Positions 2,635 through 22,320 of a stretch of 30,774 nucleotides of DNA are shown in pieces. Both the position numbers and the translations under genes were made by a program. The stretch comes from an uncultured archaeon (GTDB lineage: Archaea > Iainarchaeota > Iainarchaeia > Iainarchaeales > CSSED10-239): NCBI GenBank assembly GCA_964591795.1, contig CAZQEL010000008.1, positions 1 to 30,774 on the forward strand, read 5' to 3'. Numbering within the stretch: the stretch's first letter is position 1; each line of letters starts with the position of its first letter. A model generated the notes under the pieces. The model ran no database searches and was not told the DNA's origin. It was given only the letters and a program-made list of their open reading frames with translations.

Positions 2635-3957
2635 CTACAGTTTAACTACTTCCCAGCTTCCACCTTTATTAGGACCAATTCTTTTAATTTTACCGTCCTT
2701 TTTAAGTTTTTTAAGATTATATTCTATTCCTCTTCTTGTAAGTCCTATCTTTAAGATTAATTCTTTTGTAGTTATATTTGGGTTATTTTTTATTAATCTT
2801 ATTATTTTCTCCACAGTCTTCTCCATAGTCTTCTCTGAACTAAGTGCTTGTTTTGGTCTATAAAATATAATTGTAAACCAATTCTCAGTAATATCAAATT
2901 TATATTCTAAACCATATTCTTTCATTGAATTTCTTATTCTAGTTATACCTGATCCAATCATTTCTCCTAAGTTTACTCTTTGCATAAGACCAAATAATAA
3001 AGGATTTCTTGAAAGACTTTTCTTTCCAAATTCTTCTTTAGAAATTCCTGAAACTAAGCTTCCTGGGTTTGTAATTTCTACTCTATCATAAAATATATCA
3101 ACTTGTATATGTGCATTTAAAAAATAATTTTTATGTGCAATTGCATTAATTAATGCTTCTCTTATAGATTCTTTTGGTAATTCTAATTTTTCTTTTCTTT
3201 CCTTATCTTTAATTATATAATTTGTATTTAATTTTGAACAAGTATAAATAAAAGCATTATCAAAATTAGAATACAAATCAGTATTAAATTCTTTTTTATC
3301 TAAAATTTCAGTTTTTGTAGTTCCTTGATATAATACACATACAATTGTTGCAGTATAGAAAAATTTAGTGATTTTATTACTAAATAATAAAACACCTGCA
3401 TTTTTTAAATATTTATTATCATATAATGATAGATTTGTTAATATATTGATATAATTAGTAATATTACTTAACCCTGCTTTAGATAAATAGTTTTTAAATT
3501 TAGATTTATTAAAGTCATTTTTTAAATTAAAATTAGTATTTAATTTTTCATCAAAAAAGATAAGTCCTTCTTTTTGAAAAAAGCTTCTTAATGCATCTTT
3601 TTTCATTTTTTGAGATGTTGCACCAATTCTAATATAATATTGTTCAGAATAAGCATATGGTTTTTCTTTTCCTTCAGGAACTGTAATAATAGTAATATTA
3701 TCTATTTCTTTTACATTTAAATTAATTGATGGATCTATTTTTTGCCCAATATCTATTATTTGTGAATGTATTTTGTTTGTTAAAGTGAATTTTTTAATAT
3801 TTTCATTATCATAAACCCCTATTAATATTTTTCCACCTGATGCATTAGCAAAAGCAGATATTTCCTTACCAATATCTGTATATGATTCTTTAAATTCAAG
3901 AGTATATCCTTCTCCTATTTTAATTAAATCTAATAATTCTTGTTTGTTTTCTAACAT
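2635..3957 (-). CDS. Schlafen/AlbA_2-domain DNA-binding ATPase-like protein with C-terminal winged helix
   Basis: 440 aa. AlbA_2 signature EGYTLEFKES...ISAFANASGGKILIGV. HATPase_c_4-like REALINAIAHKNY...DRVEITNPGSL. C-terminal wHTH-like ITTKELILKIGLTRRGIEYNLKKLKKDGKIKRIG. Confidence 0.7.
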   Translation of the reverse strand: MLENKQELLDLIKIGEGYTLEFKESYTDIGKEISAFANASGGKILIGVYDNENIKKFTLTNKIHSQIIDIGQKIDPSINLNVKEIDNITIITVPEGKEKPYAYSEQYYIRIGATSQKMKKDALRSFFQKEGLIFFDEKLNTNFNLKNDFNKSKFKNYLSKAGLSNITNYINILTNLSLYDNKYLKNAGVLLFSNKITKFFYTATIVCVLYQGTTKTEILDKKEFNTDLYSNFDNAFIYTCSKLNTNYIIKDKERKEKLELPKESIREALINAIAHKNYFLNAHIQVDIFYDRVEITNPGSLVSGISKEEFGKKSLSRNPLLFGLMQRVNLGEMIGSGITRIRNSMKEYGLEYKFDITENWFTIIFYRPKQALSSEKTMEKTVEKIIRLIKNNPNITTKELILKIGLTRRGIEYNLKKLKKDGKIKRIGPNKGGSWEVVKL

Positions 3958-4009: not shown

Positions 4010-4088
4010 ACATGGCCAGAAAACTGTCCAACAAATACTATTATTTACTAGATAACATGCCTAATAATTTTTCAAAAATATTAAACTT
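4010..4088. repeat. Copy a of a ~79-bp dispersed direct repeat (partner 8987-9065)
   Basis: Core CAACAAATACTATTATTTACTAGATAACA is identical at 4029-4057 and 9006-9034, and the flanks align at roughly 80 percent. The minus strand encodes ..NIFEKLLGMLSSK* here and ..KIFERILGLLSSK* in the partner. Confidence 0.75.
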
Positions 4089-4229
4089 ATCAATTAAACC
4101 AAGTATACCAAAACTAAAAACAACTATTAGTATTACTAAAAAATAGTGAACAAACACATTTCTAAGTAAAATAAAAGGTCAATCAATAATATTTACCATA
4201 CCAAATAAAATATTTATATGATTTTTCAT
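4041..4229 (-). pseudogene. Small membrane-protein reading frame interrupted by an in-frame TGA
   Basis: Manual translation gives MKNHINILFGMVNIID[TGA at 4179-4181]PFILLRNVFVHYFLVILIVVFSFGILGLIDKFNIFEKLLGMLSSK*, which contains one clear hydrophobic helix. TGA is used as a true stop elsewhere in the window (20068-20070). Confidence 0.3.
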
Positions 4230-4293: not shown

Positions 4294-5184
4294 ATGAATA
4301 ATCTACAAAATATTACAGAAAGTAATAATATAATCACTAATAAACAACTAAATTTAGATATTACATTAGATTCACAATTAAAAAACAAAGAAATACAAGG
4401 TGAACAATGGTTTAGAGATTTTAAAAATTGGTTGTTAATAGTTTTTAATAATCCTTTAAATTTTAAATATCCTAATTCTTAATTAATATTACTTACAGAA
4501 AATAGTGAAAATATATACAAATATATAGATAATTATCAACAAATACATTTTGGGGTTGGTGTTGGGGAAACAGAACTAGAAGTAACCAAATGGCAATTAG
4601 AAAAAAATAACTATTTAGAAGTATGTGCTATTGATATTAATTATGTTTTCTTAGATTTTTTTAAAGAAAATCTGAAATATAAACATATTGAATATAAAGA
4701 CAGTAATATTTTATTTAAAGGTTATAATGATCTCTTTCAAAATATAAATAAATCAAAAATTATTTTCAATAATTCTAAATTAAAACATAAAGTGATTGTA
4801 TGTATAGGTAGTACTATTGGTAATTTTAAAAATCAAGATGAAATATTTTCTCTATTTTCTAATAATTTAAATAAAGGTGATAAATTACTTCTTGATTTTC
4901 AATTAAATACATATTTAGAACAAACTTTTAAAAAATACAAAATTAATAAATTTTATCCACAATTTGGTGTTTTTTGGGAAAAATTTGATGAAAATAAAAT
5001 TAAGTGGATATTAAATAAAGATAATTTTATAACTTTATATTATAATAACATAGATGTTTTTAGATCTAAAAAATATAGTTTAGAAGAAGTAATTAATTAC
5101 TGTAAAAAACATAATTTAAATTATCTAAATTCCTGGAAAGATAAGTATAACAATTCTTGTATTGCAATATTTGAAAAAAAATAA
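4294..5184 (+). pseudogene. SAM-dependent methyltransferase-like frame (EgtD/Methyltransf_33-like) with an in-frame TAA
   Basis: ORFs 4294-4482 and 4792-5184 are in the same frame, and the only stop between them is TAA at 4480-4482. The open stretch 4483-4791 has no ATG/GTG/TTG. It encodes a glycine-rich GVGVGETE motif followed by VCIGSTIGNF, reminiscent of EgtD-type methyltransferases. Confidence 0.45.
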
Positions 5185-5491: not shown

Positions 5492-5785
5492 ATGAATTTA
5501 AAAATAATTAAAAAGGATAATTTAGATACTAAAATTATAATGAGAACTATTTCACTTATAATATTTTTTGATAAAAATAAAAAAATACTATTACAAGATA
5601 GGACTGGAATCTCTAAATTTGGAGAAGAATGGGGTTATTTTGGTGGTAGTGTTGAAAAAAATGAGACTCCTAAACAAACAATAATTAGAGAAACTAAAGA
5701 AGAATTAGATTTTGATTTAATAAACTTTAATTTTAAATATATTGGAAAGCATGATATTGTATTTTGTAATAAACAATTTTTTTAA
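5492..5785 (+). pseudogene. Truncated NUDIX hydrolase
   Basis: Nudix box GGSVEKNETPKQTIIRETKEELDF is present, but the ORF ends at 97 aa, shortly after the box. The intact paralogue at 24555-24977 is 140 aa. Confidence 0.5.
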
Positions 5786-6160
5786 AATATAGCAATAGAA
5801 AACCAAAAAACAATAGAAATTGCAGGAGATTCTGCAAATGGTGTGATCTATTCAGGACCAGAATTTAATTTACAAACAAATAATACTAAAACATTAAAAT
5901 TTATTACCAAATATAAAAAAAAAAATAATGAAGAACCTAGTAACTGGTCAGCAAATTCTTATGATGCTGTTATGATGGTTATTAATTGTATAGATAATTA
6001 TGGATACAATTCAGAAAATATTAAAAAATGTTTATATAATATAAAAGATTATCCTGGTATTGGAGGTAAAACAACATTTGATGAATATGGTGAAGTAATT
6101 AAACCCACAATTATTAAAACTATAAAAGAAGGAGAATTTGTAAAATTTGAAGAAAATTAA
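5786..6160 (+). pseudogene. C-terminal fragment of a type I periplasmic solute-binding protein (LivK-like)
   Basis: Same frame as the NUDIX fragment and separated from it by one stop. ..NWSANSYDAVMMVINCIDNYG...YPGIGGKTTFDEYGEVIKPTIIKTIKEGEFV resembles only the last ~120 residues of ~400-aa binding proteins. Confidence 0.45.
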
Positions 6161-6282: not shown

Positions 6283-7056
6283 CTATTTTTTCCAATCTCT
6301 ATTATACATTTCTTTAATCCATTTTTTATAAATTTTATCATTATTTGAATAATAATCATTTTCAAAATTAGGATCAAACTTATAAATATCTATTTCTTCA
6401 AATTTATTTTTTTGATTTAATATTTTATCAATTGAACCATTTAAAACATCTTTAGGAACCAACCAATAAGCCTTATCAGCATAAGGTCTATAATTTCTTG
6501 TAAGTTTTGTATTAACTGTACTTACATTTAAAACAAATCCTTTAATCCATGTAGAACCATTTGAAAGATTAGATATATAAGATCTAATAATATTTTTTGA
6601 TTCTCTAAAAGAAATAAAAAAAGGTATTTCATATCTATCAGAAATTGCACCTAACATAAGTAACGATAAATTAATATTTTTACCAATATTTCTTTGTTTT
6701 TTAATTAAATCAATGATTATTTCTAAAGGATATTTAAAAGAGTTAACACAAGTATTATAAACTAAAGAATTAATTGTCGTAATTCCAGTTAGTTTGGGAT
6801 AACTTTTATTTTCAAACACATCACTTCCAATAAAATGTAAAACAGATATATTCGAATATTTAGAAATATCAATATTACTTATAACCTCTTTTGTTAAATC
6901 TCTATTTGTAAGATCACAAATTAATGAAGTTATGTTTTTATTTTCTAAAACCCCTCTTCTTGAAATTGCAATAACATGATCCTCTTTTGAAAAATAATTT
7001 AAATACTCTAAACCAATTTCACTTGTTGCACCTAAAACAAATACTAATCTTTTCAT
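6283..7056 (-). CDS. Short-chain dehydrogenase/reductase-like NAD(P)-binding protein
   Basis: 257 aa. N-terminal Rossmann motif VFVLGATSEIG. GGTGG ribosome-binding site upstream of the ATG. Confidence 0.55.
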   Translation of the reverse strand: MKRLVFVLGATSEIGLEYLNYFSKEDHVIAISRRGVLENKNITSLICDLTNRDLTKEVISNIDISKYSNISVLHFIGSDVFENKSYPKLTGITTINSLVYNTCVNSFKYPLEIIIDLIKKQRNIGKNINLSLLMLGAISDRYEIPFFISFRESKNIIRSYISNLSNGSTWIKGFVLNVSTVNTKLTRNYRPYADKAYWLVPKDVLNGSIDKILNQKNKFEEIDIYKFDPNFENDYYSNNDKIYKKWIKEMYNRDWKK

Positions 7057-7161: not shown

Positions 7162-8112
7162 ATGTGTATGGATAGAGTAAATAACCAAATATTACTAGAA
7201 TTAATGAAAAATTCAAGAATTACTAATAAACAACTATCAAAAAAAATAAAAGTATCACGAGAAGTTATTGCATATAGAATAAATAAATTAATTAATGAAA
7301 AAATAATTCTTAATTTCACTACTGAAATTAATTATAAAAAGCTAGGATTTATTGCTGGCTCTATTTATTTAAACATTAAAGAAGATAAACAAGATGAATT
7401 TATCGAATTTTTATTTAATTCAAATTATATATCCTGGGCAGTTGAACTTTCTGGAATATGGAATTTTGGATTTTCAATACTAGGAAAAACTGTTGAAGAA
7501 ATAGATGCAAGATTCAATGAAATGTACTTAAGATTTAAAGATGAAATTTTAAATCATAGATTTACAATACACAAACAAACAAAATATTTTTATGAAAAAT
7601 ATTTTAATGAAAGAATTGATTTAAAAATTAAAAAACATAAAAAAGAAGAAATTATTAAAATAGATAATATAGATAAACTAATTTTAAAAGAACTAGTTAA
7701 AAATTCAAGAATAGAACTTACAAAATTATCTTTAATTACAAAGATAAGCCCTCAAGCAGTAAGTAAAAGAATTAAAAGACTTGAAGATAATAATTATATT
7801 TCTAAATATTATATTTTTATAGACATTTCAAAACTAAATATCTACCAATATGAAATTTTTATAACAAACAACAACAAAACAATTAATGAAAGATTATTTA
7901 ACCATTTAGAATTTAGATTAGATATATCTTATATAGCAGAATACATTGGAGACCCTTATCTTGAATTTGGTTTAATTGTAAAAAGCCCTTATGATGTTAG
8001 AAATAAGTTGCAAGAAATTATAAGTTTATTTAAAAATATAACAATTATTCAGATAGACTTATTTCAAAAAGAATATATAGCAATAAGTCCACCTGCATGT
8101 GTTTTTGAATAA
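7162..8112 (+). CDS. Tandem (duplicated) Lrp/AsnC-family transcriptional regulator
   Basis: 316 aa with two HTH_AsnC-like segments (ILLELMKNSRITNKQLSKKIKVSREVIAYRINKLINEKII and ILKELVKNSRIELTKLSLITKISPQAVSKRIKRLEDNNYI). Each is followed by a RAM-like region. Confidence 0.75.
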   Translation: MCMDRVNNQILLELMKNSRITNKQLSKKIKVSREVIAYRINKLINEKIILNFTTEINYKKLGFIAGSIYLNIKEDKQDEFIEFLFNSNYISWAVELSGIWNFGFSILGKTVEEIDARFNEMYLRFKDEILNHRFTIHKQTKYFYEKYFNERIDLKIKKHKKEEIIKIDNIDKLILKELVKNSRIELTKLSLITKISPQAVSKRIKRLEDNNYISKYYIFIDISKLNIYQYEIFITNNNKTINERLFNHLEFRLDISYIAEYIGDPYLEFGLIVKSPYDVRNKLQEIISLFKNITIIQIDLFQKEYIAISPPACVFE

Positions 8113-8121
8113 TAATTATTA

Positions 8122-8198
8122 ATTCTCAAATCTATCCCAAGGAAAACCAGCCCATTGGTTTATTTTTTCAAAATAAAAATCAGGATAATATTTACAAT
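8122..8198. repeat. Orphan copy of the 3' end of the phosphoribosyltransferase gene (direct repeat with 9091-9167)
   Basis: 75/77 nt identical to 9091-9167. The minus strand translates to CKYYPDFYFEKINQWAGFPWDRFEN*, with no ORF upstream of it. Confidence 0.9.
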
Positions 8199-8214
8199 AA
8201 AATTAAATTAATTA

Positions 8215-8763
8215 TTAGATTGTTTTTTTATCTAATCTAATATCAAGATACATAGGTGTTGTACCTTTTTCTCTTTCTTTTAATATTTTAAACTTAAATT
8301 TTTTATAAAAATGTATAGAATCTTTTTTACGATCCTTATTTCTTTTAGCATCTAATACAAGAAATCTACAACCACATATATCATTAGATATCTTTTTAGC
8401 TGCATTATATGCTATTTCTAATAGAATTGTTCCAAAACCTTGTTTTTGATAATTATCATCTACCGCAAGTCTACCAATTTTTAATGCAGGTAATGTTTTA
8501 TAAAGTATATTTTTACGGTTAAATATTTTTTTAAGTGGGTTAGTTAAATTTAATGAATCATTAAGTAAAGTTACATATCCAACAAATTCATTTTTCTGAA
8601 ATAATAAATAAGTTATTGAAATTCCCTGTTCTTGATTTTTAAAAGCATCTTCAATTAAAAAATCTTTTAAATCTTTTTCATATGTAGTAAAATTAGAAAT
8701 TATAGTTATATCATTTTTTTCAATATGTTTAATAGTAACATATTTTAAATTTATTTTCCCCAT
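8215..8763 (-). CDS. GNAT acetyltransferase, TacT/AtaT-like toxin candidate
   Basis: 182 aa. LPALKIGRLAVDDNYQKQGFGTILLEIAYNAA resembles the GRLAVD...QG.G.G..LL core of GNAT toxins. Overlaps a small upstream ORF by 13 nt. Confidence 0.65.
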   Translation of the reverse strand: MGKINLKYVTIKHIEKNDITIISNFTTYEKDLKDFLIEDAFKNQEQGISITYLLFQKNEFVGYVTLLNDSLNLTNPLKKIFNRKNILYKTLPALKIGRLAVDDNYQKQGFGTILLEIAYNAAKKISNDICGCRFLVLDAKRNKDRKKDSIHFYKKFKFKILKEREKGTTPMYLDIRLDKKTI

Positions 8764-8918
8764 AATTGATTATTATAAAACTCTTTATTTTTTTCAGCTT
8801 GTTTAATAAATGCAACTCTTTCTTTAGATGGATGATTAGTTTCTTTTGTCCATTCTCTTATAAATCTATCAGCATCTTCGCCTCTTAAAACAGGAGTTGC
8901 TCTTATTGGTTTTGCCAT
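8751..8918 (-). CDS. Unannotated 55-aa ORF, candidate antitoxin partner of the GNAT
   Basis: Manual translation: MAKPIRATPVLRGEDADRFIREWTKETNHPSKERVAFIKQAEKNKEFYNNQLWGK*. Absent from the ORF track. Overlaps the GNAT start. Less AT-biased than the flanking intergenic DNA. Confidence 0.45.
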   Translation of the reverse strand: MAKPIRATPVLRGEDADRFIREWTKETNHPSKERVAFIKQAEKNKEFYNNQLWGK

Positions 8919-8986
8919 ATATATCACATTAAATTAATTATATATAAATATTATGTGTATATATATTTATAATGCTTTTGTAACTA

Positions 8987-9065
8987 CTTGACCAATAAAA
9001 TTATACAACAAATACTATTATTTACTAGATAACAAACCTAATATTCTCTCAAAAATCTTAAAAAA
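8987..9065. repeat. Copy b of the ~79-bp dispersed repeat (partner 4010-4088)
   Basis: See 4010-4088. Lies between the phosphoribosyltransferase stop codon and the promoter of the GNAT module. Confidence 0.75.
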
Positions 9066-9075
9066 GTTATATAGC

Positions 9076-9546
9076 TTATTTATCTTTATGATTCTCAAAT
9101 CTATCCCAAGGAAAACCAGCCCATTGATTTATCTTTTCAAAATAAAAATCAGGATAATATTTACAATTACTTTCGTTTACAAAAATAGTTAAAGTTTTTA
9201 TTTCTTTTACAGCATACTTAACTTTTAATAAATTAACTAAAAACTCTAAAGTTTTACCACTATCAGAAATATCATCAATTAAAAGAACTGTTTTTCCTTC
9301 TAAATACTCCTTTGATGGAAGATTAACAATTTGAATTTCTTTACGTTCTTTACCGTCATAAGATTTAACAGCAATGGTTAATAAATTTTTAGTATCAAAA
9401 AGTCTTGCAAAATGAATTGCAGGATATACTCCACCAACTGAAACCCCAACAATACAATCTGGAGCAAAAGTTGTTTTTTTAACATCATTAAATAATTTTA
9501 AACAACGATCATCAATTTCATTATAAGTATATTTTATTGTTTCCAT
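9076..9546 (-). CDS. Purine phosphoribosyltransferase (Gpt-like)
   Basis: 156 aa. PRPP-binding loop VLLIDDISDSGKTL. The overall layout and the C-terminal W..FPWD resemble xanthine-guanine PRTs. Confidence 0.75.
   Translation of the reverse strand: METIKYTYNEIDDRCLKLFNDVKKTTFAPDCIVGVSVGGVYPAIHFARLFDTKNLLTIAVKSYDGKERKEIQIVNLPSKEYLEGKTVLLIDDISDSGKTLEFLVNLLKVKYAVKEIKTLTIFVNESNCKYYPDFYFEKINQWAGFPWDRFENHKDK
9091..9167. repeat. Gene-resident copy of the 77-bp direct repeat (partner 8122-8198)
   Basis: Forms codons ..CKYYPDFYFEKINQWAGFPWDRFEN of the live gene, which then continues HKDK*. Confidence 0.9.
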
Positions 9547-9917: not shown

Positions 9918-10646
9918 TTAAATAATAAGCTTAGATCTATTAACTCTAAGCCATTTATTCTTTTTTTTATAATCTGGAATTATTTTTTCAACAATTCCCC
10001 AGAATCTTTTTGAATGATTATGTTGTATTGTGTGAGCTAACTCGTGAACAATAACATAATCTATAATATCCTCTCTTGCAACTAAAAGAGATGTTGAAAA
10101 AATTAGTTTTTTATCATGTGAACAAGATCCAAACTTAGATGAATTGTTCTTAAGTGAAACTGATTTTAAATCTTGTTTAAAATAAAGATTATTATAATAA
10201 TCTACTTTAGATTTAATAACAAAAAGCATATCTTTTTCTAAAATTTTATTTATTAAAATAGATACTTGTTTATCTTGATCTTCTTTAGATTGATTTAAGG
10301 GCAAGGATAGGTGTATTTTACTATCAATTAGCTTCGCACTAGCTGTTTTTTTAAGCTTATACACCATATTTAATGAATATACTTTATTTAGAACACAAAT
10401 AGAGTCACCTGAGCTATAGGATTTATATAAAACAGGAGCAAATCTATCTTCATCTTTTTCAAGATACTTAATAAATTTGTTTTTCATACTTAATATTTGT
10501 TCATTTTGCCTTTTTTCTGAAAAATAAATAGGAACTCTAATATTTACATTTTTACCAATTGACATATAAGTAGATCTTCTTTTTTCAATAAATATTCTTA
10601 AAATATATTTTTTATCATTAAATATTAAAAAATCTTCTTTATACAT
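9918..10646 (-). CDS. YgjP-like (DUF45/M48-related) zinc metallohydrolase
   Basis: 242 aa. C-terminal VIVHELAHTIQHNHSKRFWGIVEKIIPDYKKKNKWL matches the HELAH...NHS..FW...P.Y...WL signature. Confidence 0.7.
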   Translation of the reverse strand: MYKEDFLIFNDKKYILRIFIEKRRSTYMSIGKNVNIRVPIYFSEKRQNEQILSMKNKFIKYLEKDEDRFAPVLYKSYSSGDSICVLNKVYSLNMVYKLKKTASAKLIDSKIHLSLPLNQSKEDQDKQVSILINKILEKDMLFVIKSKVDYYNNLYFKQDLKSVSLKNNSSKFGSCSHDKKLIFSTSLLVAREDIIDYVIVHELAHTIQHNHSKRFWGIVEKIIPDYKKKNKWLRVNRSKLII

Positions 10647-10723: not shown

Positions 10724-11479
10724 TTAAATAGATTTATTATAATCTATAAAAAAATAATCTCCACCACAAGTAATATTTGACCAATCTCCACTTGAAGAAC
10801 AAACTGCACTATTATCATCAGCATAGAAACAATTAATTCCACCTTCTAACTTATTTTGATCTAATTTATCAAGATAGTCAATTAGATCTTGTGGAGTACT
10901 ATAATAACAATAACCATTCTTACTTATATTTTTTTTAATAGTATTATTTTCAGCTAAAAGAGATGAAGAAATATTAGAATCATCAATACCATCTTCTTTA
11001 AGTTTTGTTTTATAAGTTTCTTTATATTCAACATTTAAATCAGAAATACTTACATTTACTTTACAATAAATATATTCAATACCAAATATAGTATATTCAG
11101 TAGTTCTTGTAAATATACGGTCTTCAGTTTTAATTTCATCAATAAACACAAACCTTGAGTCTTTATTACAATCAGCAGAGTATGTTTTAAAACAATTTAT
11201 ATTATCCCCACAGTTTTTAGAATCTCCAGCATACACAATTTCTAAAACTAGTTCAGGAACATTAACATCTAAAGAAGTATTAATACCACTATTTGAATCA
11301 ACTATTAAATTTAAATCAATAGAATTATCTAAATCATCATTTTGATTAGAATTATAAAAATTAGGACTTAGGTATGCAAAAATAATTAAAACAAAAAGAA
11401 TCATAATAAGAATAATGTCATATAAAAGAAAAAACTTAGCTTTTTTTGAAAAATTTTTTAAAATTGTATTTTCATCCAT
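10724..11479 (-). CDS. Membrane-anchored, Cys-rich extracellular protein (function unknown)
   Basis: 251 aa. N-terminal transmembrane anchor FFLLYDIILIMILFVLIIFAYL followed by a Cys-containing soluble domain. Confidence 0.4.
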   Translation of the reverse strand: MDENTILKNFSKKAKFFLLYDIILIMILFVLIIFAYLSPNFYNSNQNDDLDNSIDLNLIVDSNSGINTSLDVNVPELVLEIVYAGDSKNCGDNINCFKTYSADCNKDSRFVFIDEIKTEDRIFTRTTEYTIFGIEYIYCKVNVSISDLNVEYKETYKTKLKEDGIDDSNISSSLLAENNTIKKNISKNGYCYYSTPQDLIDYLDKLDQNKLEGGINCFYADDNSAVCSSSGDWSNITCGGDYFFIDYNKSI

Positions 11480-11539: not shown

Positions 11540-12580
11540 TTACATAAACTTTTTTGTATAAATTTTATTTATAGTATCTAAAATATTTTTAGCTTTTTGA
11601 AGATCTAAACTTTTAATTTTAGCTAGATCTTGTAAAGTTAAGTTCTTAATGTTATTAATTGATTTTTTAACTTTTACTAAATTTTCAATAATCTTTTCAT
11701 CTAAATTATTCATTGATGCTAAAATTCTATAACCTCTAGGAAAATCAACAGATTTTAAAGATATAAAATCAGAAAGATCTAAAATTTCAATTAATCTTTC
11801 AGTATCAGCAATTTTTCTAATACCCATTTGTTTTAAAGTTGAGATTTTATCTAAAGCTACTTCTTTTGTTTGAAGAGTATTAGAATAATCTCTTAAAATT
11901 AAAGATAATTCTTCATCAATACCAACAGTTAATTCATATAAAGTATTTGCAATATCTTGACCTTGGTTACCTAATTCAACAACCAAATCATCAACTTGCT
12001 TTTCATGTTTTATAAAATAAAGCATATTTTGTATTATTTCAATAATTTCTTCACTTAAATTACTTGAATTATTAATTTCAAGAAAAAGTATATGTTTTAG
12101 TTTTTTATCAAGTTTATTTCTAAAATCTTTTAAATTATTAATAGCATAATTAGCTTTAACCATTAACATATTAAATTCTTGAAGAACATATTTTTGATCC
12201 TTATAATAAAGAGAAATTACATTTCTTCTATGAGAAATTGCAATAACAGGAACTTTTGATTCAATTGCTGTTTGTTCAGCTGATCTATGTCTCATACCTG
12301 TTTCTTTTGAAGCTATATTTTTATTTGGCATTAAATGTTTGTTTGCACTTATAATTTTAGTTAAATCATTAGATAGAACAATAGCACCATCCATTTTTGA
12401 TAATTCAAAAAGTTTTTGTGAAGAAAAAAGAATATCAAGATCAATTCCACCTCTTAAAAGTCCTTTTAAACCATCAGAATTACCTAAAACTATAAGAGCA
12501 CCTAAATTTCCATGTAATATTTCATCAAGACCTTGTCTTAATTCTGTACCTGGAGTTACTAATGGTAATATTTTGTTCAA
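11540..12580 (-). CDS. disA: DisA-type diadenylate cyclase (DNA integrity scanning protein)
   Basis: 346 aa. VTPGTELRQGLDEIL..GALIVLG, DGAIVLS and GMRHRSAEQ are DAC-domain hallmarks. A helical linker and a C-terminal HhH-like region follow. The track start is a TTG; see the finding on the 5' end. Confidence 0.85.
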   Translation of the reverse strand: MNKILPLVTPGTELRQGLDEILHGNLGALIVLGNSDGLKGLLRGGIDLDILFSSQKLFELSKMDGAIVLSNDLTKIISANKHLMPNKNIASKETGMRHRSAEQTAIESKVPVIAISHRRNVISLYYKDQKYVLQEFNMLMVKANYAINNLKDFRNKLDKKLKHILFLEINNSSNLSEEIIEIIQNMLYFIKHEKQVDDLVVELGNQGQDIANTLYELTVGIDEELSLILRDYSNTLQTKEVALDKISTLKQMGIRKIADTERLIEILDLSDFISLKSVDFPRGYRILASMNNLDEKIIENLVKVKKSINNIKNLTLQDLAKIKSLDLQKAKNILDTINKIYTKKFM

Positions 12581-12756
12581 TATCTTCAGCTATTGAAAAT
12601 ACAAAATCAAAATCGGGTTTTTTAAAATTTTTTATTAAAATTATATTTTTCATTATTACCCTTTCATATTATATCCCAAAAGCATTATAAACTTATTGTA
12701 AAAATAATAAAAGTTTATTGATTTTTTTTAATTGGTTTCTTTTTTAATCAAATTAA

Positions 12757-14308: not shown

Positions 14309-15124
14309 TTATTTATTTTTTATATTTTCAATAATTTCCTTATAATAAAATTCAAACTTATTTATATCTTGAAATTTAATTTCATACATATCTTTTGAAA
14401 ATACATCTTTTAATTCTAATAATTTATTTTTAAAACTAACCATACTAAACTTAGAAGGATAATTAGCACCTTTAAAATTTAATTTTTTATTAATAATATC
14501 AGTAACATCTTTAGTTAAATACAAACCTTTCTTATTTATTAAAAACCAAAGATCATAAACATCTCTACCTTTTCTCCTTGTGTATATGGTTCTTATTTTT
14601 TCAAAAAATATTTCTTCTATATTCATACATCTTATTATTTTTATAGGTAAATTATAGGCAGGAAAATCAAGAGAGAAAGATATTGTAGGTAATAAAACAT
14701 CTTCTCTATAGCTAATATCAACATCTACAAAACATAAACTTTCTTTGGTAGTATACAATGGCCCTTCTGCAGATATTTTTAATGAAAAACCATATTCATT
14801 TAAATGAATTATTTTACCTTTAGATTTAACACCAGCTAATATCCAAAGCATATTTGTAATCCTTCCATTTATATGATTAGAAAATGATTTTAAATCTTTA
14901 AAACCATATGGAGAAATAGATAAATCTATTGTAAAATCTAAATCTGTAGAAAATCTATCTAATCCATGAAAAAACCATAAATAAGTTCCACCTTTAAAAA
15001 CTAAAGGATATTCTGAAAGAATATTTAAAATTAAAGTTTGAAGATAATGTTTTTCTTGCTGATTAGGCTTTATACCTCTTATACTAGCTATATCAATTAA
15101 TTCATTTTTACTTAACATTTTCAA
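14309..15124 (-). CDS. AbiEii/AbiGii-family nucleotidyltransferase toxin (second copy)
   Basis: 271 aa. VFKGGTYLWFFHGLDRFSTDLDFT signature. 17-nt overlap with the upstream partner. Confidence 0.8.
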   Translation of the reverse strand: MKMLSKNELIDIASIRGIKPNQQEKHYLQTLILNILSEYPLVFKGGTYLWFFHGLDRFSTDLDFTIDLSISPYGFKDLKSFSNHINGRITNMLWILAGVKSKGKIIHLNEYGFSLKISAEGPLYTTKESLCFVDVDISYREDVLLPTISFSLDFPAYNLPIKIIRCMNIEEIFFEKIRTIYTRRKGRDVYDLWFLINKKGLYLTKDVTDIINKKLNFKGANYPSKFSMVSFKNKLLELKDVFSKDMYEIKFQDINKFEFYYKEIIENIKNK

Positions 15125-15671
15125 TCACATTCCTTATTCTTTTTGGATATAATTTACTATATTTTTTCAATAGTCTAAAATTAATTTTAGATTTATAATC
15201 TTCAAATATAGATTTATTATAAATACCATAATAAATGCCATCAAGAATCGCTTTTTCAGGCTCTGCAATATAAGCATAACTTTGATCTAAGTTATATTTT
15301 TTAAAACCAAAAAATAATTTAGGTGTTATTTTATGATATTTTAATTGCATATCTTTGTAATATCTACTATTTATAGTTGTTACGCAAGTAGTAGTTGTTG
15401 GAACTTGATTAATAATTTTATGAAAAAACAAAGCAGAAGATAAAGATATATATGATGGTTCAATAAATTGAGTACTTATTACATTATCATCTGATGAAAA
15501 TATAACTCTACCATGCTTTCTTTTAGCCAATCCATTATTAACTAGTCTTGAAATATAAACATTACTAACTGCTACTGATTTACCTATAAGATTAGCTAAT
15601 TGTCTTGTATTAAATACAGCTTTCTTAGATTCAATAGCTTTATCTTTAATTTTATATATATTATTCATCAC
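15108..15671 (-). CDS. Putative AbiEi-like antitoxin/regulator (second copy)
   Basis: 187 aa. N-terminal wHTH-like FNTRQLANLIGKSVAVSNVYISRLVNNGLAKR. Overlaps the AbiEii-like gene. Confidence 0.55.
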   Translation of the reverse strand: MMNNIYKIKDKAIESKKAVFNTRQLANLIGKSVAVSNVYISRLVNNGLAKRKHGRVIFSSDDNVISTQFIEPSYISLSSALFFHKIINQVPTTTTCVTTINSRYYKDMQLKYHKITPKLFFGFKKYNLDQSYAYIAEPEKAILDGIYYGIYNKSIFEDYKSKINFRLLKKYSKLYPKRIRNVIENVK

Positions 15672-16945: not shown

Positions 16946-17173
16946 TAAAATCACTTCCTATAATTTATATATATATTTTTAATATTAACTAATAAATAAT
17001 ATAAGAATGTAACGATTTAAAAATGTTAACTATAGTAGATAACAGTTAATAGTATTACACAACTATTATGTTTTAACACAATATTTATATAATCGTTTAA
17101 TTAAAACATCAAATATTATTAAAAAATAAATTGAAGATAATATTTAAATAATATATAATAAAATTGAAAAAAC

Positions 17174-17224
17174 TTAACGCCGAAAAAAGCTAAAAACACT
17201 ATTTTTTAAATATTTCGGCGTTAA
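17174..17224. repeat. 51-nt stem-loop element, left copy (12-bp stem TTAACGCCGAAA/TTTCGGCGTTAA, 27-nt loop)
   Basis: Read directly from the sequence. Ends 8 nt before the Fic ATG. The loop carries a TATA-like TTTTTTAAATA centred about 26 nt upstream of the ATG. Confidence 0.85.
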
Positions 17225-17232
17225 ATGTATTT

Positions 17233-18210
17233 ATGTATCTTACAATAAAACAAATTAATTCTAAAAAATATTACTATCTTGAAGAGAAGATAGATAATAA
17301 AACAATAAATACATTTATAGGTATAGATAAAATTAACAATATTAATAAATTTAAAGAGATATTTAAAAAACATAGATTAAATATAATATTAAAACAAACA
17401 AATAAGATTAAAAAAGAAAAAGATATTAAATATTTATCTACCTCTCAAATAATAGAGATTGAAAAACTTAAATATAATTTAAATATATTTAAAACTTATT
17501 TTAAAGAAACATATCAACAATTTAATGAAGATGAATATATTAGATATATACAAGGAAGTTCTTCTGTTGAAGGAAATTCAATTAATCTTGAAGAAACAAC
17601 CCTAATTATTAAAGAAAATTTATCAATACATGGAAAAACAATAAATGAAGTAAAAGAAATTCAAAATTTACTTGAAAGTAAAAAAATTATTGATAAACTA
17701 CCTGAATTAAATGAAAAATTAATTAAAAAAATACATTCTAAAATAATGTCTTCATTTATAACTAAAAAACCAGGTGAATATAGAGATATACCCATATTTG
17801 TAACTGGTTCTGAAGTTAAAAGAGTAAATTATAAAGAAATATCTCTAAAATTAAAAGAATTATTAAATTGGTATATTAAAAATAAAACTAAACTACATCC
17901 AATAGAACTAACTTCTATATTTCATATTTGGTTTGAAAATATACATCCTTTTATAGATGGAAATGGAAGAGTAGGTAGAGAGTTATTAAATTTAATACTA
18001 TTAAAAGAAAATTACCCACGTATAATTATTAATTTAAAAAATAGAACTAAGTATATATCTATTTTAGAAAATTCACAAATACAAGGTAACCAAAAATATG
18101 TGAATTTTTCTGAATTTACATATAATCTTTTAATTGAAAGATCAAATATTATTGAAAAAGAAATTGAAGATAATATTGAAATAATATATAATAAAATTAA
18201 AAAGACTTAA
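17233..18210 (+). CDS. Fic-domain protein (class II, with an intramolecular inhibitory motif)
   Basis: 325 aa. Catalytic HPFIDGNGRVGRE fits HPFx[D/E]GNGRxxR. The upstream SSSVEGN fits the [S/T]xxxE[G/N] inhibitory helix motif. Confidence 0.85.
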   Translation: MYLTIKQINSKKYYYLEEKIDNKTINTFIGIDKINNINKFKEIFKKHRLNIILKQTNKIKKEKDIKYLSTSQIIEIEKLKYNLNIFKTYFKETYQQFNEDEYIRYIQGSSSVEGNSINLEETTLIIKENLSIHGKTINEVKEIQNLLESKKIIDKLPELNEKLIKKIHSKIMSSFITKKPGEYRDIPIFVTGSEVKRVNYKEISLKLKELLNWYIKNKTKLHPIELTSIFHIWFENIHPFIDGNGRVGRELLNLILLKENYPRIIINLKNRTKYISILENSQIQGNQKYVNFSEFTYNLLIERSNIIEKEIEDNIEIIYNKIKKT

Positions 18211-18257
18211 CGCCGAAATATTAAAAAAATAGTATTTATATCTTTTTTCGGCGTTAA
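18207..18257. repeat. 51-nt stem-loop element, right copy, inverted relative to 17174-17224
   Basis: Identical 12-bp stem. The 27-nt loop is the reverse complement of the left loop at 23/27 positions. The Fic stop codon (18208-18210) lies inside the stem. A T6 run sits at 18243-18248. Confidence 0.85.
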
Positions 18258-18269
18258 ACTCTTTAAAAA

Positions 18270-19717: not shown

Positions 19718-20059
19718 TTATTTTAATGATTTTTTAATAGAATTAATTCCATATTTTAAAGGAACAGTATTCATATTCAAAGGTATTGACTTTAATTCTA
19801 GTTTATCTAAAAAATCTCTATATGATAATCCTGCTATTTCACTTGCTTCACTTATATTTATTTCTGTGTTTTTATATAACTCAACTGCTTTATTGAATCT
19901 ATATTCTAATACTTCTTTTTCAATTATAGATCTAATATATTCTGATTCAGTCAAATTTTTTTCTTTAGCAATAGCATAAATTATACTTGATAAAGAGTCT
20001 TTTAATCTTAATGTTTTAACATTCATTTTTTCTTTTTCAGTATATTTTAGTTTAACCAT
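19718..20059 (-). CDS. RHH-like plus UPF0175-like antitoxin candidate
   Basis: The ATG at 20059 is preceded by AAGGTGA at an 8-nt spacing, so it is preferred over the track's GTG at 20071. The UPF0175-like segment is AVELYKNTEINISEASEIAGLSYRDFLDKL. Confidence 0.55.
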   Translation of the reverse strand: MVKLKYTEKEKMNVKTLRLKDSLSSIIYAIAKEKNLTESEYIRSIIEKEVLEYRFNKAVELYKNTEINISEASEIAGLSYRDFLDKLELKSIPLNMNTVPLKYGINSIKKSLK

Positions 20060-20067
20060 ATTTAATT

Positions 20068-20577
20068 TCACCTTTTTAAATAATTATTTATAGATTTTAA
20101 ATAATCTTGAGAAAGCGATTTTTCTATAATACTAATTTTTACTAAAATTTCTTTTTTAGTTAGTTTTTTATTAAAATATAAAAATAATAAGAATTCAATT
20201 ATATTTCCAACTAATATATTATTTTGTTTACAATAATTATAAGGTCTTCCATTATCAATAAAAGTAATTAAACCTAGTTCTTGTGATAAAGCAATACAGT
20301 ATAGTTCACCAGAATCTTTACTTACTTGACTTTCTAATTCTTTTTTAATAGTAGCTGGGTCTTTCACTACTATAATTCCTTCTTTTTTTAATTTATAATA
20401 TAGTTTAATATCATTTGGGGTAAATAATTTAAACTTTAAAGATTCTGCAAACGTAATTTCTAATTCAACTTTAGAAGGAACATATAAATAATTATAATAT
20501 TCTAAAAAAATATCTAGTAAATCAACTTTAACTAAATGTATCCAAAAGGATGCATCAACAATAGCAATCTTTACCAT
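20068..20577 (-). CDS. PIN-like (DUF3368-type) nuclease toxin candidate
   Basis: 169 aa. N-terminal IAIVDASFWIHL is typical of the first acidic strand of PIN-like proteins. Adjacent to the UPF0175-like gene. Confidence 0.5.
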   Translation of the reverse strand: MVKIAIVDASFWIHLVKVDLLDIFLEYYNYLYVPSKVELEITFAESLKFKLFTPNDIKLYYKLKKEGIIVVKDPATIKKELESQVSKDSGELYCIALSQELGLITFIDNGRPYNYCKQNNILVGNIIEFLLFLYFNKKLTKKEILVKISIIEKSLSQDYLKSINNYLKR

Positions 20578-20695: not shown

Positions 20696-20750
20696 TTAAT
20701 GAGTAAACCAGAAATTATATATTTTTTTACCTTCTTTTTCTTCAATTGAA
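20696..20750. repeat. Orphan copy of the 3' end of gltX (direct repeat with 22266-22320)
   Basis: 54/55 nt identical. The minus strand reads SIEEKEGKKIYNFWFTH*, against SIEEKEGKKTYNFWFTH* in the live gene. Confidence 0.9.
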
Positions 20751-20861
20751 AATAGAAAAGGAACAAGTGATTATTTAACAATTAATTACGATAGCGATGC
20801 TGAGTTAGATTTTAAATTAAAGATAATTAAAAACGGAGAAGTTGTTGCTTATAACAACTAA
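20751..20861 (+). pseudogene. Orphan 3' fragment of a plus-strand gene
   Basis: Open frame ..TSDYLTINYDSDAELDFKLKIIKNGEVVAYNN* with no start codon. It begins abruptly at the repeat boundary. Confidence 0.3.
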
Positions 20862-20874
20862 CTCTTTCTTTTTT

Positions 20875-22131
20875 TTATTTAATATTAAAATCTCTCCAAA
20901 TCAGATAATATTTTAAAATATTAATATTTTCCTTTTTTGAATCAAAATCAATTTTTGAATTTTCTTTAACAATTAAATAATTTTTATTTAATTCTAATTT
21001 TTGTACAGCTTTTAATTTAAAATTTTTAATTTCCTTATAAGTAATTTGATTTTTATATTTTACTTCAACACCTATCTTTTTAGAAGTAATTTGGTCATAA
21101 CTAATAAAATCAATCTCATTTACTCCTCTATTATTCCAAAAATATTCTGCATTTAACTGAAAAGCAACATCTGCTTCAATAAATTTACTTTCATTAGGAT
21201 TATTAGTTACAAAAGAAATTAATGTAGTACAATATGGATAAAACTTTTTTGAACTTTTTTCTACCTTTCTTGCATTATTTGAAAAATTATACACTTTTCT
21301 GATTAATCCACTATTTACTAAATAATCTATATATTTTGAAATCTTATTTCTATCTGTTCCAAAATCCTTAGCTAAATCATTATAATTTATTATTTGACCA
21401 GGATCTTTTAAAATAACTTTTAAAATACTTAATAAAATATCAATATCAACATCTAATATATATTTTTCTGAATCTTCAAATATTATTTTTTTAATTATTG
21501 TGGTAACATAATCTTTAGATTCAATTGAAGAGTTTATTGCTAATTGAGGATATTGTCTTTTTAAATAGATTTTATACTGTTCAATAAATGCATCATCATA
21601 TACAGCTTTTAATAAATTTTCATTATTTGAAAAAACTAAATATTCCTTAAAACTTAATTGTGGCACAAAATATTCAAAAATTCTTCCTGCAAGACTTTCT
21701 TTTTTACTAACTCTTAATGTAGACCCACTTACAATCAATTTAATATTTGGATAATTATCATATATTATTTTCACTTTTTCTTGCCAGTTATATATTTTTT
21801 GTATTTCATCAAAAAAGAAATAAAGTTTTCCAGAATCAATAGATTTACCTCTAATAATTTCATATTCTTTTAATAATTTAAAAATATCTTCAGTAAAATC
21901 ATCATATGAAAAATAAAATATATCTTTTACATTTATTTTATTATTAATTAAATAATTAATTAATTGTTTAATTAAAACAGATTTCCCAACTCTTCTAGAA
22001 CCTTCAATAGATAAAATTAACTTATTAGATAATATATTTTTTTCTAGAATATAATAAACATCTCTTTTTATTGGGTAATCAATAAGATTACCTTTCCAAT
22101 GTTTATTTTGAAAATAAATTATTTCTTGCAT
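20875..22131 (-). CDS. AAA ATPase of the AAA_14/DUF4143 type
   Basis: Walker A GSRRVGKSVL and Walker B-like LYFFFDEIQ. A start at 22131 (MQEIIYFQNKHW) is preferred because TTTATAAA lies about 24 nt upstream, consistent with a leaderless transcript. Confidence 0.7.
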   Translation of the reverse strand: MQEIIYFQNKHWKGNLIDYPIKRDVYYILEKNILSNKLILSIEGSRRVGKSVLIKQLINYLINNKINVKDIFYFSYDDFTEDIFKLLKEYEIIRGKSIDSGKLYFFFDEIQKIYNWQEKVKIIYDNYPNIKLIVSGSTLRVSKKESLAGRIFEYFVPQLSFKEYLVFSNNENLLKAVYDDAFIEQYKIYLKRQYPQLAINSSIESKDYVTTIIKKIIFEDSEKYILDVDIDILLSILKVILKDPGQIINYNDLAKDFGTDRNKISKYIDYLVNSGLIRKVYNFSNNARKVEKSSKKFYPYCTTLISFVTNNPNESKFIEADVAFQLNAEYFWNNRGVNEIDFISYDQITSKKIGVEVKYKNQITYKEIKNFKLKAVQKLELNKNYLIVKENSKIDFDSKKENINILKYYLIWRDFNIK

Positions 22132-22265
22132 ATACAAATAAGATACAAAACATTTATAAATAGCAATCATATTTGTAACAAATATGCATAAATAATTAAA
22201 TTTTGTGCCAAATTTGTTGTTTTTTTGGTAAAAAAATAATTCTATAATCCAAATTTATATGTTTA

Positions 22266-22320
22266 TTAATGAGTAAACCAGAAATTATATGTTTTTTTAC
22301 CTTCTTTTTCTTCAATTGAA
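22266..22320. repeat. Gene-resident copy of the 55-bp direct repeat (partner 20696-20750)
   Basis: Starts exactly at the gltX stop codon and covers the last 17 codons. Confidence 0.9.

Follow-up and report, generated by a model that had tools for sequence, protein, structure and literature searches.

A GNAT toxin-like cassette between two copies of a phosphoribosyltransferase gene end in a DPANN-type archaeon, a probable insertion with long target duplication

The window analyzed here, the whole stretch of 30,774 nucleotides from an uncultured archaeon, carries on its minus strand a gene for a purine-type phosphoribosyltransferase (PRT) of 156 amino acids (9076..9546; Pfam Pribosyltran, 2.9e-17), whose closest NCBIfam models are those of xanthine/hypoxanthine PRT, matched below their cut-offs. 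The last 77 coding bases of this gene flank an 892-bp cassette on both sides (8199..9090, minus strand), which is co-oriented with PRT and lies between its last sense codon (Asn) and its stop codon. The two copies, at 8122-8198 and 9091-9167, match each other at 75/77 positions as direct repeats (BLAST E ~1e-31) and form one of the four significant direct-repeat pairs within the 30.8-kb window, which bears out the duplication of the PRT 3' end claimed from the letters alone. The upstream copy (9091..9167, minus strand) keeps PRT intact as the 3' end of the functional gene. The downstream copy (8122..8198, minus strand) is a dead remnant, recognized by repeat comparison and tblastn; it encodes the same 25 residues (tblastn 100%) followed directly by TAA, and no ORF runs into it, since three codons before its start the frame is closed by another TAA (8203-8205). 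Read from the sequence, the TAA at 8119..8121 (minus strand) is the original PRT stop codon, stranded with the remnant; together they lie 6 nt from the stop codon (8110-8112) of a convergent gene for an AsnC/Lrp-type regulator with two HTH domains (7162..8112, plus strand; Pfam HTH_24/HTH_AsnC-type, two stretches). This lrp-like gene is the original downstream neighbor of PRT and is outside the insert. The reading and tblastn thus agree with the original prediction of a live right-hand copy and, beside the lrp-like stop, a left-hand copy with no ORF upstream.

The two mismatches between the copies, AAG/AAA (Lys) and AAT/AAC (Asn), are indeed both synonymous, an outcome with a probability of ~0.02-0.09 for two neutral changes. 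The accompanying idea that the two copies evolved as coding sequence in separate lineages is only weakly supported, the strain data being mosaic or ambiguous: live and remnant copies occur across strains in mosaic combinations of variant bases, the live copy of contig L001 has three changes, and the remnant of L003 matches the window's live copy in its variant bases. The latter is possibly gene conversion and could be an assembly path switch at k=31; it was set aside because an assembler at k=31 cannot phase the two variant sites, which lie among stretches of 34-36 shared nt. Mis-joins at repeats can occur in metagenome assemblies, but an artefact or a chance repeat is hardly credible as an explanation for the locus, given the E value of the repeat pair, a repeat length of 77 nt that is below that of typical reads and below the k=141 of one assembly, and two further assemblies that span both junctions identically. 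These are a JGI contig (L001; 99.7% over 12.6 kb) and an ENA contig (L002; MEGAHIT, k=141; 100% over 3.9 kb), both with the same architecture across both repeat copies, and two partial contigs are also consistent with it. The architecture of the PRT locus is no assembly artefact. Nor is the repeat a dispersed element unrelated to PRT, a possibility that had been named as part of a ground for abandoning the idea of an insertion: it is present in only two copies per locus (window, L001, L002 and L028) and absent from 36 other loci and from viral contigs. It is local target sequence, the true C-terminus of PRT.

The PRT ORF ends in ..CKYYPDFYFEKINQWAGFPWDRFEN-HKDK and stop, the last four codons and the stop (15 nt; 9076..9090, minus strand) being a read-through into the cassette. 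In an alignment of 13 PRT sequences, all 12 homologues (43-73% identical) end in ..FPWDRFE[K/E] plus 0-1 residue, except that the most distant one stops a little sooner, and none of the 12 has the HKDK tail. The ancestral length is therefore that of the remnant, ..DRFEN and stop, and HKDK is a feature of this locus alone, with HQDK and stop as its counterpart in L001. These C-termini support the original prediction that the live PRT gene was regenerated by the duplicated 3' end while its former terminus stayed next to the lrp-like gene. They do not bear out the suggestion that a captured PRT gene end had been brought in, since HKDK and its stop resemble the start of the cassette and match no homologue PRT terminus. 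The cassette starts with CATAAAGATAAATAA in the window and with CATTAAAAT.. in a related cassette at an NDK gene (see below), and by this comparison the tail looks like the cassette's own first bases rather than the PRT terminus of another lineage. All four contigs that carry the PRT locus (4/4) are occupied by the cassette. Neither a strict empty site, with PRT ending in ..DRFEN and stop and abutting lrp, nor any alternative state of the locus was found in exact-protein look-ups with PRT (not on record), GNAT, the lrp-like gene and GluRS, in a metagenome scan with PRT (one match, irrelevant) or in a scan of GTDB genomes, where relatives are <=73% identical. The next PRT relatives beyond the occupied contigs are 67-73% identical and differ in synteny; those in L004-L009 and L022, in this same range of identity, have no cassette downstream. 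The search for an uninserted allele that had been proposed as a check was thus negative at PRT, where all close contigs are occupied, and positive for the sister cassette at NDK.

As anticipated, the 892 bp between the repeats contain a single module, consisting of a 15-nt head, a promoter/leader region with a repeat fragment, a 55-aa ORF, a GNAT gene and a 16-nt tail. The GNAT gene (8215..8763, minus strand) encodes an acetyltransferase of 182 amino acids (Pfam Acetyltransf_1/7) with the acetyl-CoA-binding motif Q-x-x-G-x-G, read as YQKQGFG. Its 13 best PDB matches are GNAT acetyltransferases (E 9e-7 to 5e-5), including KacT (5zgn), 6ajm/6ajn, which we take to be AtaT, and 5fvj/7ak8, presumably TacT; judged by sequence similarity, the protein is homologous to the type II toxins TacT, AtaT and KacT. 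Among its 521 homologues, those bearing names come from DPANN-type archaea. The 55-aa ORF (8751..8918, minus strand), a putative antitoxin, overlaps the GNAT start by 13 nt and is conserved upstream of GNAT, the pairing being kept in four lineages in which the 55-aa ORF is 64-71% identical. It matches nothing in Pfam, NCBIfam or PDB, even at E <= 10, and a single-sequence AF2 model of low confidence (pLDDT 64), with an extended N-terminus and two helices, predicts a structure that is compatible with the RHH fold and is not evidence for it. The pair is thus like the type II GNAT-RHH systems TacAT, AtaRT, ItaRT and KacAT in its homologous GNAT with the motif, in a small gene immediately upstream that overlaps the toxin start, and in its compact autonomous operon. 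It is unlike them in the upstream protein, which at 55 amino acids lacks DUF1778 or any other Pfam match, whereas known GNAT-RHH antitoxins have ~90 amino acids. In systems of this type the toxin stops growth through acetylation of aminoacyl-tRNA and is neutralized by the antitoxin.

Upstream of this ORF, a non-coding region of 157 bp (8919..9075, minus strand) contains A/T-rich TATA-like boxes, among which TTTATATA would lie ~25-30 nt before the ATG of the 55-aa ORF. It also contains 66 nt (8997-9062) that are 86% similar to 4020-4085 and form a fragment of a dispersed repeat. A reading of this fragment as the fossil C-terminus of an earlier target (FKIFERILGLLSSK and stop, against FNIFEKLLGMLSSK and stop at 4041-4085) is unsupported: a HMMER search with the putative C-terminus gave 0 matches among 1.84 billion representatives, and mismatches between long copies of the repeat fall on the three codon positions in the proportion 6/4/5, and thus give no coding signature. 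The fragment is treated here as part of the dispersed repeat, which measures ~180 nt in full.

Sister cassettes (~65-70% identical) are present at two unrelated loci, each between repeats of local DNA. In L010 the sister cassette follows an NDK gene and is flanked by a perfect 38-nt repeat (38/38), and empty NDK sites exist in L031/L034 and in L036-L038. The single 38-mer of L031 can be aligned with either copy in L010, the flanks on both sides being 95% identical, and the whole difference between the occupied and the empty site is the 819-bp cassette plus the 38-mer. Rfam found nothing in the conserved spacer downstream of NDK. In L014/L017 a perfect 17-nt repeat spans the stop codon of a radical-SAM gene and is found a second time 5 nt past the stop of GNAT; its score of 17 against a shuffle maximum of 14 puts it modestly above chance. 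At all three loci the cassette ends 4-16 nt after the toxin stop codon. The homology of the window and L010 cassettes extends at the 3' end up to 1-2 nt from the repeat, and both start with CAT[A/T]AA close to the repeat boundary, their repeats being unrelated. This likeness amounts to ~14 nt (3') plus 6 nt (5'), all of it A/T-rich, and the L014-type cassette differs at its 5' end. Beyond the second copy of the repeat, the old flank starts with TAA at 3/3 sites, against a TAA frequency of 0.04-0.06 per position, a pattern noticed post hoc on three sites.

A second footprint of the same form as the PRT cassette lies within the same window. The 3' end of the GluRS gene, 55 nt including the stop (22266-22320), is repeated at 20696-20750 (54/55; whole feature 20696..22320, minus strand), and the 1515-bp insert between the copies has as its sole gene one for an AAA_14/DUF4143 ATPase (20875-22170; Pfam). 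Contig L030 has the same GluRS/AAA_14 architecture. A third arrangement (17080..18258, plus strand) is related to the PRT footprint and not identical with it: ahead of a Fic gene (17233-18210) lies a decayed duplicate of the final 98 nt of that gene plus a hairpin, 84% identical and with in-frame stops, and the 12-bp hairpin stems are identical between the copies.

Toxin-antitoxin (TA) and other addiction or defense modules are scattered through prokaryotic genomes as if they were mobile, and most are without mobility genes. For restriction-modification (R-M) genes of bacteria, insertion with long target duplication was reportedly described in 2000, in Gene 259:99. We consider it probable that the module at PRT is an insertion of this kind, with a long, variable target duplication as known from bacterial R-M genes and here with TA-like cargo in an archaeon. 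One cassette family at three unrelated targets, with local repeats of 17, 38 and 77 nt, makes a repeat derived from the target the easier explanation. The 77-nt repeat would have been made from the target when the cassette entered, either by two strand breaks 17-77 nt apart followed by fill-in, or by a replicative template switch returning upstream of the break. Insertion would depend on host or trans-acting functions, since the cassette encodes only the putative toxin-antitoxin pair. Both routes are proposed from the footprints, the duplications of 17-77 bp. Homologous recombination between the 77-nt repeats could afterwards remove the cassette precisely and restore ..DRFEN and stop; the empty-site junction expected from an insertion with target duplication would read ..GAAAGTA, the 77-mer and TAATAATTATT. 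As a TA pair would penalize loss of the cassette, this would explain why addiction-type cargo is found in such a footprint.

R-M genes of bacteria are inserted with 46-423-bp target duplications and without mobility genes, some of them overlapping gene 3' ends (PMC2853133, PMC2993543). The defining features used by Furuta, Abe & Kobayashi in 2010 were direct repeats >30 bp, an uninserted relative with one copy, an insert <20 kb without integrase or transposase, a local repeat and R-M cargo; no archaeal case passed that screen, and the mechanism of long target duplication was still open (PMC2853133). The repeats at PRT (77 nt) and of the sister at NDK (38/38) exceed 30 bp, the insert of 892 bp is well within the size limit, with no integrase or transposase among the 40 window ORFs, and the repeat at PRT is local and non-dispersed. 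The cargo, GNAT plus the 55-aa ORF, has no R-M genes, which places the locus as a variant within the class but outside the R-M set. The likeness to the bacterial cases thus lies in a short addiction-type insert without integrase or transposase between repeats of target sequence, whose length varies from case to case and some of which extend into the 3' end of a neighboring gene. The differences concern the cargo, a TA-type GNAT in which the DNA-breakage idea proposed for R-M has no obvious counterpart, the DPANN-type archaeal host, and the presence of one cassette family at three targets. In addition, the duplication at PRT is wholly coding, ends exactly at the stop codon and has given the host protein a tail of four residues, and, as compared with R-M inserts with a known uninserted relative, such a relative is available here for the sister cassette at NDK only and not for the PRT site. 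No long-target-duplication footprint for TA cargo or for archaea is reported in the literature searched, and a recombinase-free footprint of this kind seems new for both.

The same topology would result from a Campbell-type event, in which a circle carrying the cassette plus a 77-bp PRT 3' segment enters PRT through a single crossover, homologous or site-specific. Such a circle could stem from an earlier PRT-linked copy in another strain, and a variant of this scheme has a linear fragment for which homology on one side provides the anchor. For homologous recombination, repeats of 38-77 nt are of sufficient length. The copies differ only at synonymous sites, strains are mosaic in the variant bases, and window and L001 have 0 differences over the whole cassette and five in the adjoining PRT (9087-9376), as if recombination tracts ended in PRT, all of which fits recombination between diverged alleles, although the L003 variant among these data could be the assembly path switch mentioned above. 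This scheme accounts for spread among PRT-bearing relatives and not for the origin of the footprint: three unrelated targets with repeats of differing length would each need a separate capture and reintegration, and the HKDK tail resembles the cassette start and not any PRT terminus. A circular or extrachromosomal cassette was not found in viral-contig scans, which gave GNAT relatives at 27-28% and no match to the 77-mer. As the source of the PRT footprint, a Campbell-type event is a possibility to be taken seriously, if on balance a doubtful one. The original prediction of a circle inserted by a single crossover thus holds in that the module is an insertion with this topology and in that a plausible route of spread is named, but it does not extend to the origin of cassettes at three targets with local repeats. 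Single crossover of a circle is a plausible secondary route among strains already sharing the PRT sequence, and is compatible with insertion by target duplication: a circle of the cassette plus one repeat would be released via the repeats, with the junction ..AATTTAATTTT, the 77-mer and CATAAAGAT, and could re-enter a naive PRT allele.

Integrases classically enter gene 3' ends and restore the gene, as e14 and phage 21 do at icd, a protein-coding gene for which they supply a substitute gene end. The cassette might therefore be a site-specific integrative element, mobilized in trans by a tyrosine or serine recombinase encoded elsewhere or decayed from a larger element since deleted, with the 77 bp as the segment of identity between attL and attR. 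CIMEs, for example, retain attL/attR without recombination genes (PMC5704250), and a 41-nt partial duplication around a small insert at tRNA-Ser in L022 indicates that att-like footprints exist in the lineage. Shared with e14, phage 21 and CIMEs are the restored target gene and, as the mark of the other junction, a 3' end that is displaced or duplicated. On the other hand, Pfam finds no integrase or transposase domain in the 40 window ORFs, the cassette included, in line with the earlier statement that none is visible. The insert is 0.9 kb, the repeats at the three sites are unrelated, differ in length and share no common att core beyond the weak A/T-rich likeness at one end, and the new PRT tail comes from the cassette and not, as in e14 and phage 21, from a carried gene end. 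The cassettes at all three loci end 4-16 nt past the toxin stop, and a difference at NDK of just the 819-bp cassette and the 38-mer, with repeats 100% identical, leaves neither room nor time for the decay of a larger element. We regard a site-specific element as quite unlikely.

Integron gene cassettes often carry TA modules, and an insert this small, with one or two genes, cargo of the addiction type and no gene for mobility, also recalls MITEs with passenger genes. The insert at PRT is like integron cassettes in its size of ~1 kb, its one or two genes and its lack of a recombinase of its own. It is unlike them in that no attC-like site was found, the 16 nt from the GNAT stop to the repeat leaving no room for one, in that the window has no IntI, attI or cassette array, and in that the flanking repeats are target DNA. 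For a DDE transposon or MITE, terminal inverted repeats would be expected, and in four cassettes these score no better than shuffles; the duplications, of 17, 38, 55 and 77 nt, are not of a short fixed length. To our knowledge, 17-77 bp is far outside the range of target duplications made by transposases. The longest of transposase type cited is 19-26 bp, for IS1630 (PMC2853133). An integron-type cassette or non-autonomous transposon is very improbable at this locus.

Insertion with long target duplication would mean that a streamlined genome, tiny and DPANN-type, accepts an insertion inside an important salvage gene without losing the gene. A bolder proposal, which we put forward as speculative and consider improbable as it stands, is a dedicated DPANN-type route by which recombinase-free cassettes (GNAT-TA, AAA_14, perhaps Fic) are placed co-directionally at stop-codon boundaries (..AAT^TAA) of expressed genes, with one precise and one variable junction and duplications of 17-77 bp. 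If it exists, such a route would be the archaeal counterpart of long target duplication by bacterial R-M genes and a general answer to how TA modules move without mobility genes. The material in hand comprises one family at three targets, one empty site, exact junctions and a second cargo type in the same 30 kb, and the PRT locus and its sisters could make the phenomenon testable as to how gene ends are chosen as targets, how the length of the duplication varies and how excision proceeds via the repeats. A 29-nt repeat beside PRT in L007, L008 and L024 was considered as a target duplication and rejected; it is an element found beside tRNA genes. Direct repeats around AbiE, AlbA_2 and the UPF0175 pair in the window do not rise above shuffles. 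The only Rfam match in the window is tRNA-Asn, and between the accessory genes of the window lie those for aminoacyl-tRNA synthetase, DisA and PRT.

The 77-nt direct repeats at 8122-8198 and 9091-9167 differ at two positions, both synonymous (AAG/AAA and AAT/AAC), as the original prediction had it, and they align with a BLAST E of about 1e-31 in a self-comparison of the 30.8-kb window, in which only four direct-repeat pairs passed a cut-off of 1e-3. On the right, the repeat forms the 3' end of the phosphoribosyltransferase (PRT) ORF (9076-9546, minus strand; 156 aa, Pribosyltran domain), whose product terminates in ..FPWDRFEN-HKDK*. The left copy encodes the identical 25 residues and is directly followed by a TAA at 8119-8121; because another in-frame TAA occurs three codons upstream, no gene leads into this remnant, which is separated by 6 nt from the stop of a convergent double-HTH AsnC/Lrp-type gene (7162-8112). 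The 892-bp interval between the copies comprises the 15 nt of the HKDK* tail, an A/T-rich leader of 157 bp, a 55-aa ORF (8751-8918), and a GNAT ORF of 182 aa (8215-8763) overlapping the latter by 13 nt. Mis-assembly at these repeats is very unlikely, because two other assemblies, a JGI contig (L001, 99.7% identical over 12.6 kb) and a k=141 MEGAHIT contig (L002, 100%), show the same architecture across both junctions.

Comparison with 12 PRT homologues (43-73% identical) indicates which terminus came first. These proteins end in ..FPWDRFE[K/E] followed by no more than one residue, the most distant one being slightly shorter, and a four-residue C-terminal extension is present in 0 of the 12; since they end like the remnant, its ..DRFEN* terminus has the ancestral form and the live gene has acquired HKDK as a new tail, bearing out the proposal that the insertion regenerated PRT and stranded the old terminus. 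The tail DNA (CATAAAGATAAATAA) is similar to the first bases of a sister cassette found next to an NDK gene (CATTAAAAT..) and most probably represents the start of the insert rather than a PRT terminus from another lineage, a reading that does not support the suggested captured gene end. The nearest PRT relatives belong to unclassified "archaeon" MAGs (67-73% identity) and a "Candidatus Iainarchaeum" MAG (54%); none of the relatives examined carries a cassette downstream of PRT, the neighbors being a tRNA-Thr/MacB-type transporter or a glycosyltransferase. One of these loci (L007; also L008 and L024) contains a 29-nt G+C-rich element, GTTGCGCGCTAACCGAGCGAAACCGGTTA, at 6467-6495 and 11230-11258, one copy of which begins 5 nt past the PRT stop. 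It was rejected as a target duplication, as one copy adjoins a tRNA-Thr gene and the other, 4.8 kb away, a tRNA-Ser gene.

The GNAT cassette is a discrete, mobile unit. Its closest homologue (70% protein identity) is found downstream of an NDK gene in another archaeon of the same sample series (L010-L013), where a perfect 38-nt direct repeat, beginning 12 nt past the NDK stop, flanks the L010 cassette on both sides. The cassette is absent from L031 (and L034), which is 95% identical to L010 at the nucleotide level on both flanks, and from L036-L038, with an 88% identical NDK protein. L031 aligns to L010 over 1-1479 as far as the end of repeat copy 1 and over 1442-2510 beginning at repeat copy 2, so that a single 38-mer matches both copies, and the occupied site differs from the empty one only by the 819-bp cassette and a second 38-mer. 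In L014/L017, a radical-SAM gene is followed by a third branch of the family, flanked by perfect 17-nt repeats (score 17 versus a maximum of 14 in 200 shuffles), the first spanning the radical-SAM stop codon and the second lying 5 nt past the GNAT stop; no such flanking repeat is left in L018, a diverged sister. Each of the three cassettes points in the same direction as the gene upstream of it, lies at or just past that gene's end, and ends 4-16 nt past the toxin stop codon. The old flank past the second repeat copy also starts with TAA in each case (..GAGAAT^TAATAA, ..AGAAAT^TAACAC, and ..AATCT^TAAACA) against a TAA frequency of 0.04-0.06 per position, a pattern recognized post hoc and from only three sites. 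The window and L010 cassettes can be aligned at the 3' end to within 1-2 nt of the repeat and both begin with CAT[A/T]AA, their repeats being unrelated; the 5' leader differs in the L014-type cassette. The spacer of ~300 nt between NDK and Arc_PepC_II (L031 1480-1630; L036 2025-2280) is conserved to an unusual degree across species, has G+C-rich hairpins, and matches nothing in Rfam.

At PRT, the cassette is an insertion with target sequence duplicated on both sides, the duplication preserving the gene, and members of the family have inserted at other targets, where the duplications differ in length. Neither the cassette nor its surroundings encode a recombinase, none of the window ORFs scanned has an integrase or transposase domain, and the cassettes lack terminal inverted repeats. 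The duplication was probably generated during insertion itself, perhaps by two breaks 17-77 nt apart followed by fill-in or by a template switch re-entering upstream. The main rival, proposed originally, is a pre-formed circle carrying a PRT segment and entering by homology through a single crossover; however, such a circle could find only PRT, and three targets would each need a separate capture and reintegration, and the new PRT tail derives from the cassette and not from a foreign PRT gene. For these reasons, we favor duplication at insertion as the origin of the footprint and retain the circle as a possible secondary route, in line with the variant bases of the two repeat copies being mosaic among strains and with the window and L001 showing zero differences over the whole cassette and five in the adjoining PRT segment, although the numbers are small. 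Differences between strains cluster in the repeat (L003 707-783, corresponding to window 8122-8198; L001 4850-4941). Over 2652 nt, L003, a further assembly of the locus, departs from the window only at the two variable positions of the remnant, where it has the bases of the live copy, and the L001 live copy has three changes (a synonymous Asn change, Gly->Asp, and the tail HQDK*); gene conversion could account for these variants, or in L003 a switch of assembly path. Following duplication at insertion, homologous recombination between the repeats should either excise the cassette precisely or set free a circle, which might re-enter naive alleles by single crossover. A toxin-antitoxin cargo would counter-select repeat-mediated loss, which fits the bias of the footprint toward addiction-type genes.

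Among solved structures, the GNAT protein is most similar to GNAT acetyltransferases (E 9e-7 to 5e-5), including KacT, AtaT, and TacT entries, and its sequence contains the acetyl-CoA motif Q-x-x-G-x-G. Its homologues number 521, those named being from Woesearchaeota, Nanoarchaeota, and Diapherotrites MAGs. The 55-aa ORF directly upstream is kept in four lineages (64-71% identity), has no match in Pfam, NCBIfam, or PDB, and gives a weak single-sequence AlphaFold model (pLDDT 64) with an extended N-terminus and two helices. Because of the toxin homology and the conserved context, we call the pair a toxin-antitoxin-type module with a putative antitoxin without family match.

Insertion with long target duplication was reportedly described for bacterial restriction-modification (R-M) systems in 2000. 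In this class, repeats measure 46-423 bp, some overlapping gene 3' ends, and mobility genes are absent (PMC2853133); Furuta et al. (2010) proposed a role for double-strand breakage while leaving the mechanism open, and no archaeal case survived their screen (PMC2853133). A single-gene case, mcrA, has also been cited (PMC2993543). Judging by titles and abstracts, the papers listed in a full-text search on long target duplication deal mainly with R-M or mention the term in passing, and none of those listed reports toxin-antitoxin cargo or an archaeal host. The PRT locus resembles this class in its repeat of >30 bp, small insert, lack of mobility genes, and unique local repeat sequence, the empty site being found only for the NDK-site sister cassette, but differs in cargo and host domain (an archaeon of ~21% G+C) and in that the duplication lies wholly within coding sequence, the host protein gaining a 4-residue tail. 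In contrast to integrase-borne elements and CIMEs (PMC5704250), the cassette has no integrase or shared att core; unlike integron cassettes, it has no room for attC and no IntI; and relative to DDE transposons, it lacks terminal inverted repeats, and its duplications are too long and too variable. The PRT/GNAT locus is a variant of this known kind of gene mobility, set apart by its cargo and host domain.

The same form recurs in the window at GluRS, the last 55 nt of which, including the stop (22266-22320), are copied at 20696-20750 (54/55; the one mismatch being non-synonymous, Thr/Ile) around a 1515-bp insert (20751-22265) with a single AAA_14/DUF4143 ATPase gene, co-oriented with GluRS and with the live copy upstream. 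In front of a Fic/DOC gene (17233-18210) lies a decayed copy of the 3' end of that gene (repeats 17080-17225 and 18113-18258; 84%), comprising the last 98 nt of Fic, with stop codons, and a hairpin (DNA fold z-score about -4.6) that has the same 12-bp stems TTAACGCCGAAA/TTTCGGCGTTAA in the two copies but different loops; this footprint is related to the others but not the same. The window is rich in addiction/defense-type genes among housekeeping genes (49-1592, 14309-15671, 2635-3957, and 19718-20577), namely two AbiEii pairs, an AlbA_2/HATPase_c_4 protein, and a UPF0175 pair, and no flanking repeats above chance occur around these. The AlbA_2/HATPase_c_4 gene is preceded by a dispersed repeat of ~180 nt (window 4022-4200; L001 14201-14379; copies 86-89% identical), of which 66 nt also occur inside the GNAT cassette leader (8997-9062); the repeat contains a hydrophobic ORF of 38-45 codons but has no coding signature or homologues. 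In L022, a locus with a 73% identical PRT, a perfect 41-nt partial copy of tRNA-Ser(GCT), spanning the anticodon loop to the T loop and lacking the tRNA 3' end, follows the intact tRNA at a distance of 880 nt (10038-10121 and 10947-10987), the insert of ~840 bp having no integrase and one 218-aa membrane ORF. Gene fragments at 4792-5184, 5492-5785, and 5843-6160 (a C-terminal Methyltransf_33 piece, a truncated NUDIX, and the ~95 last residues of Peripla_BP_6) suggest repeated rearrangement or decay of this region. The window (12580-12600) and L001 (1341-1425), elsewhere 99.7% identical, lose all similarity upstream of the gene for DisA (DAC domain). In L001, this gene follows an AAA_14 gene and encodes 374 aa with a full-length N-terminus and an ATG start, whereas the window copy lacks ~28 N-terminal codons and starts with TTG.
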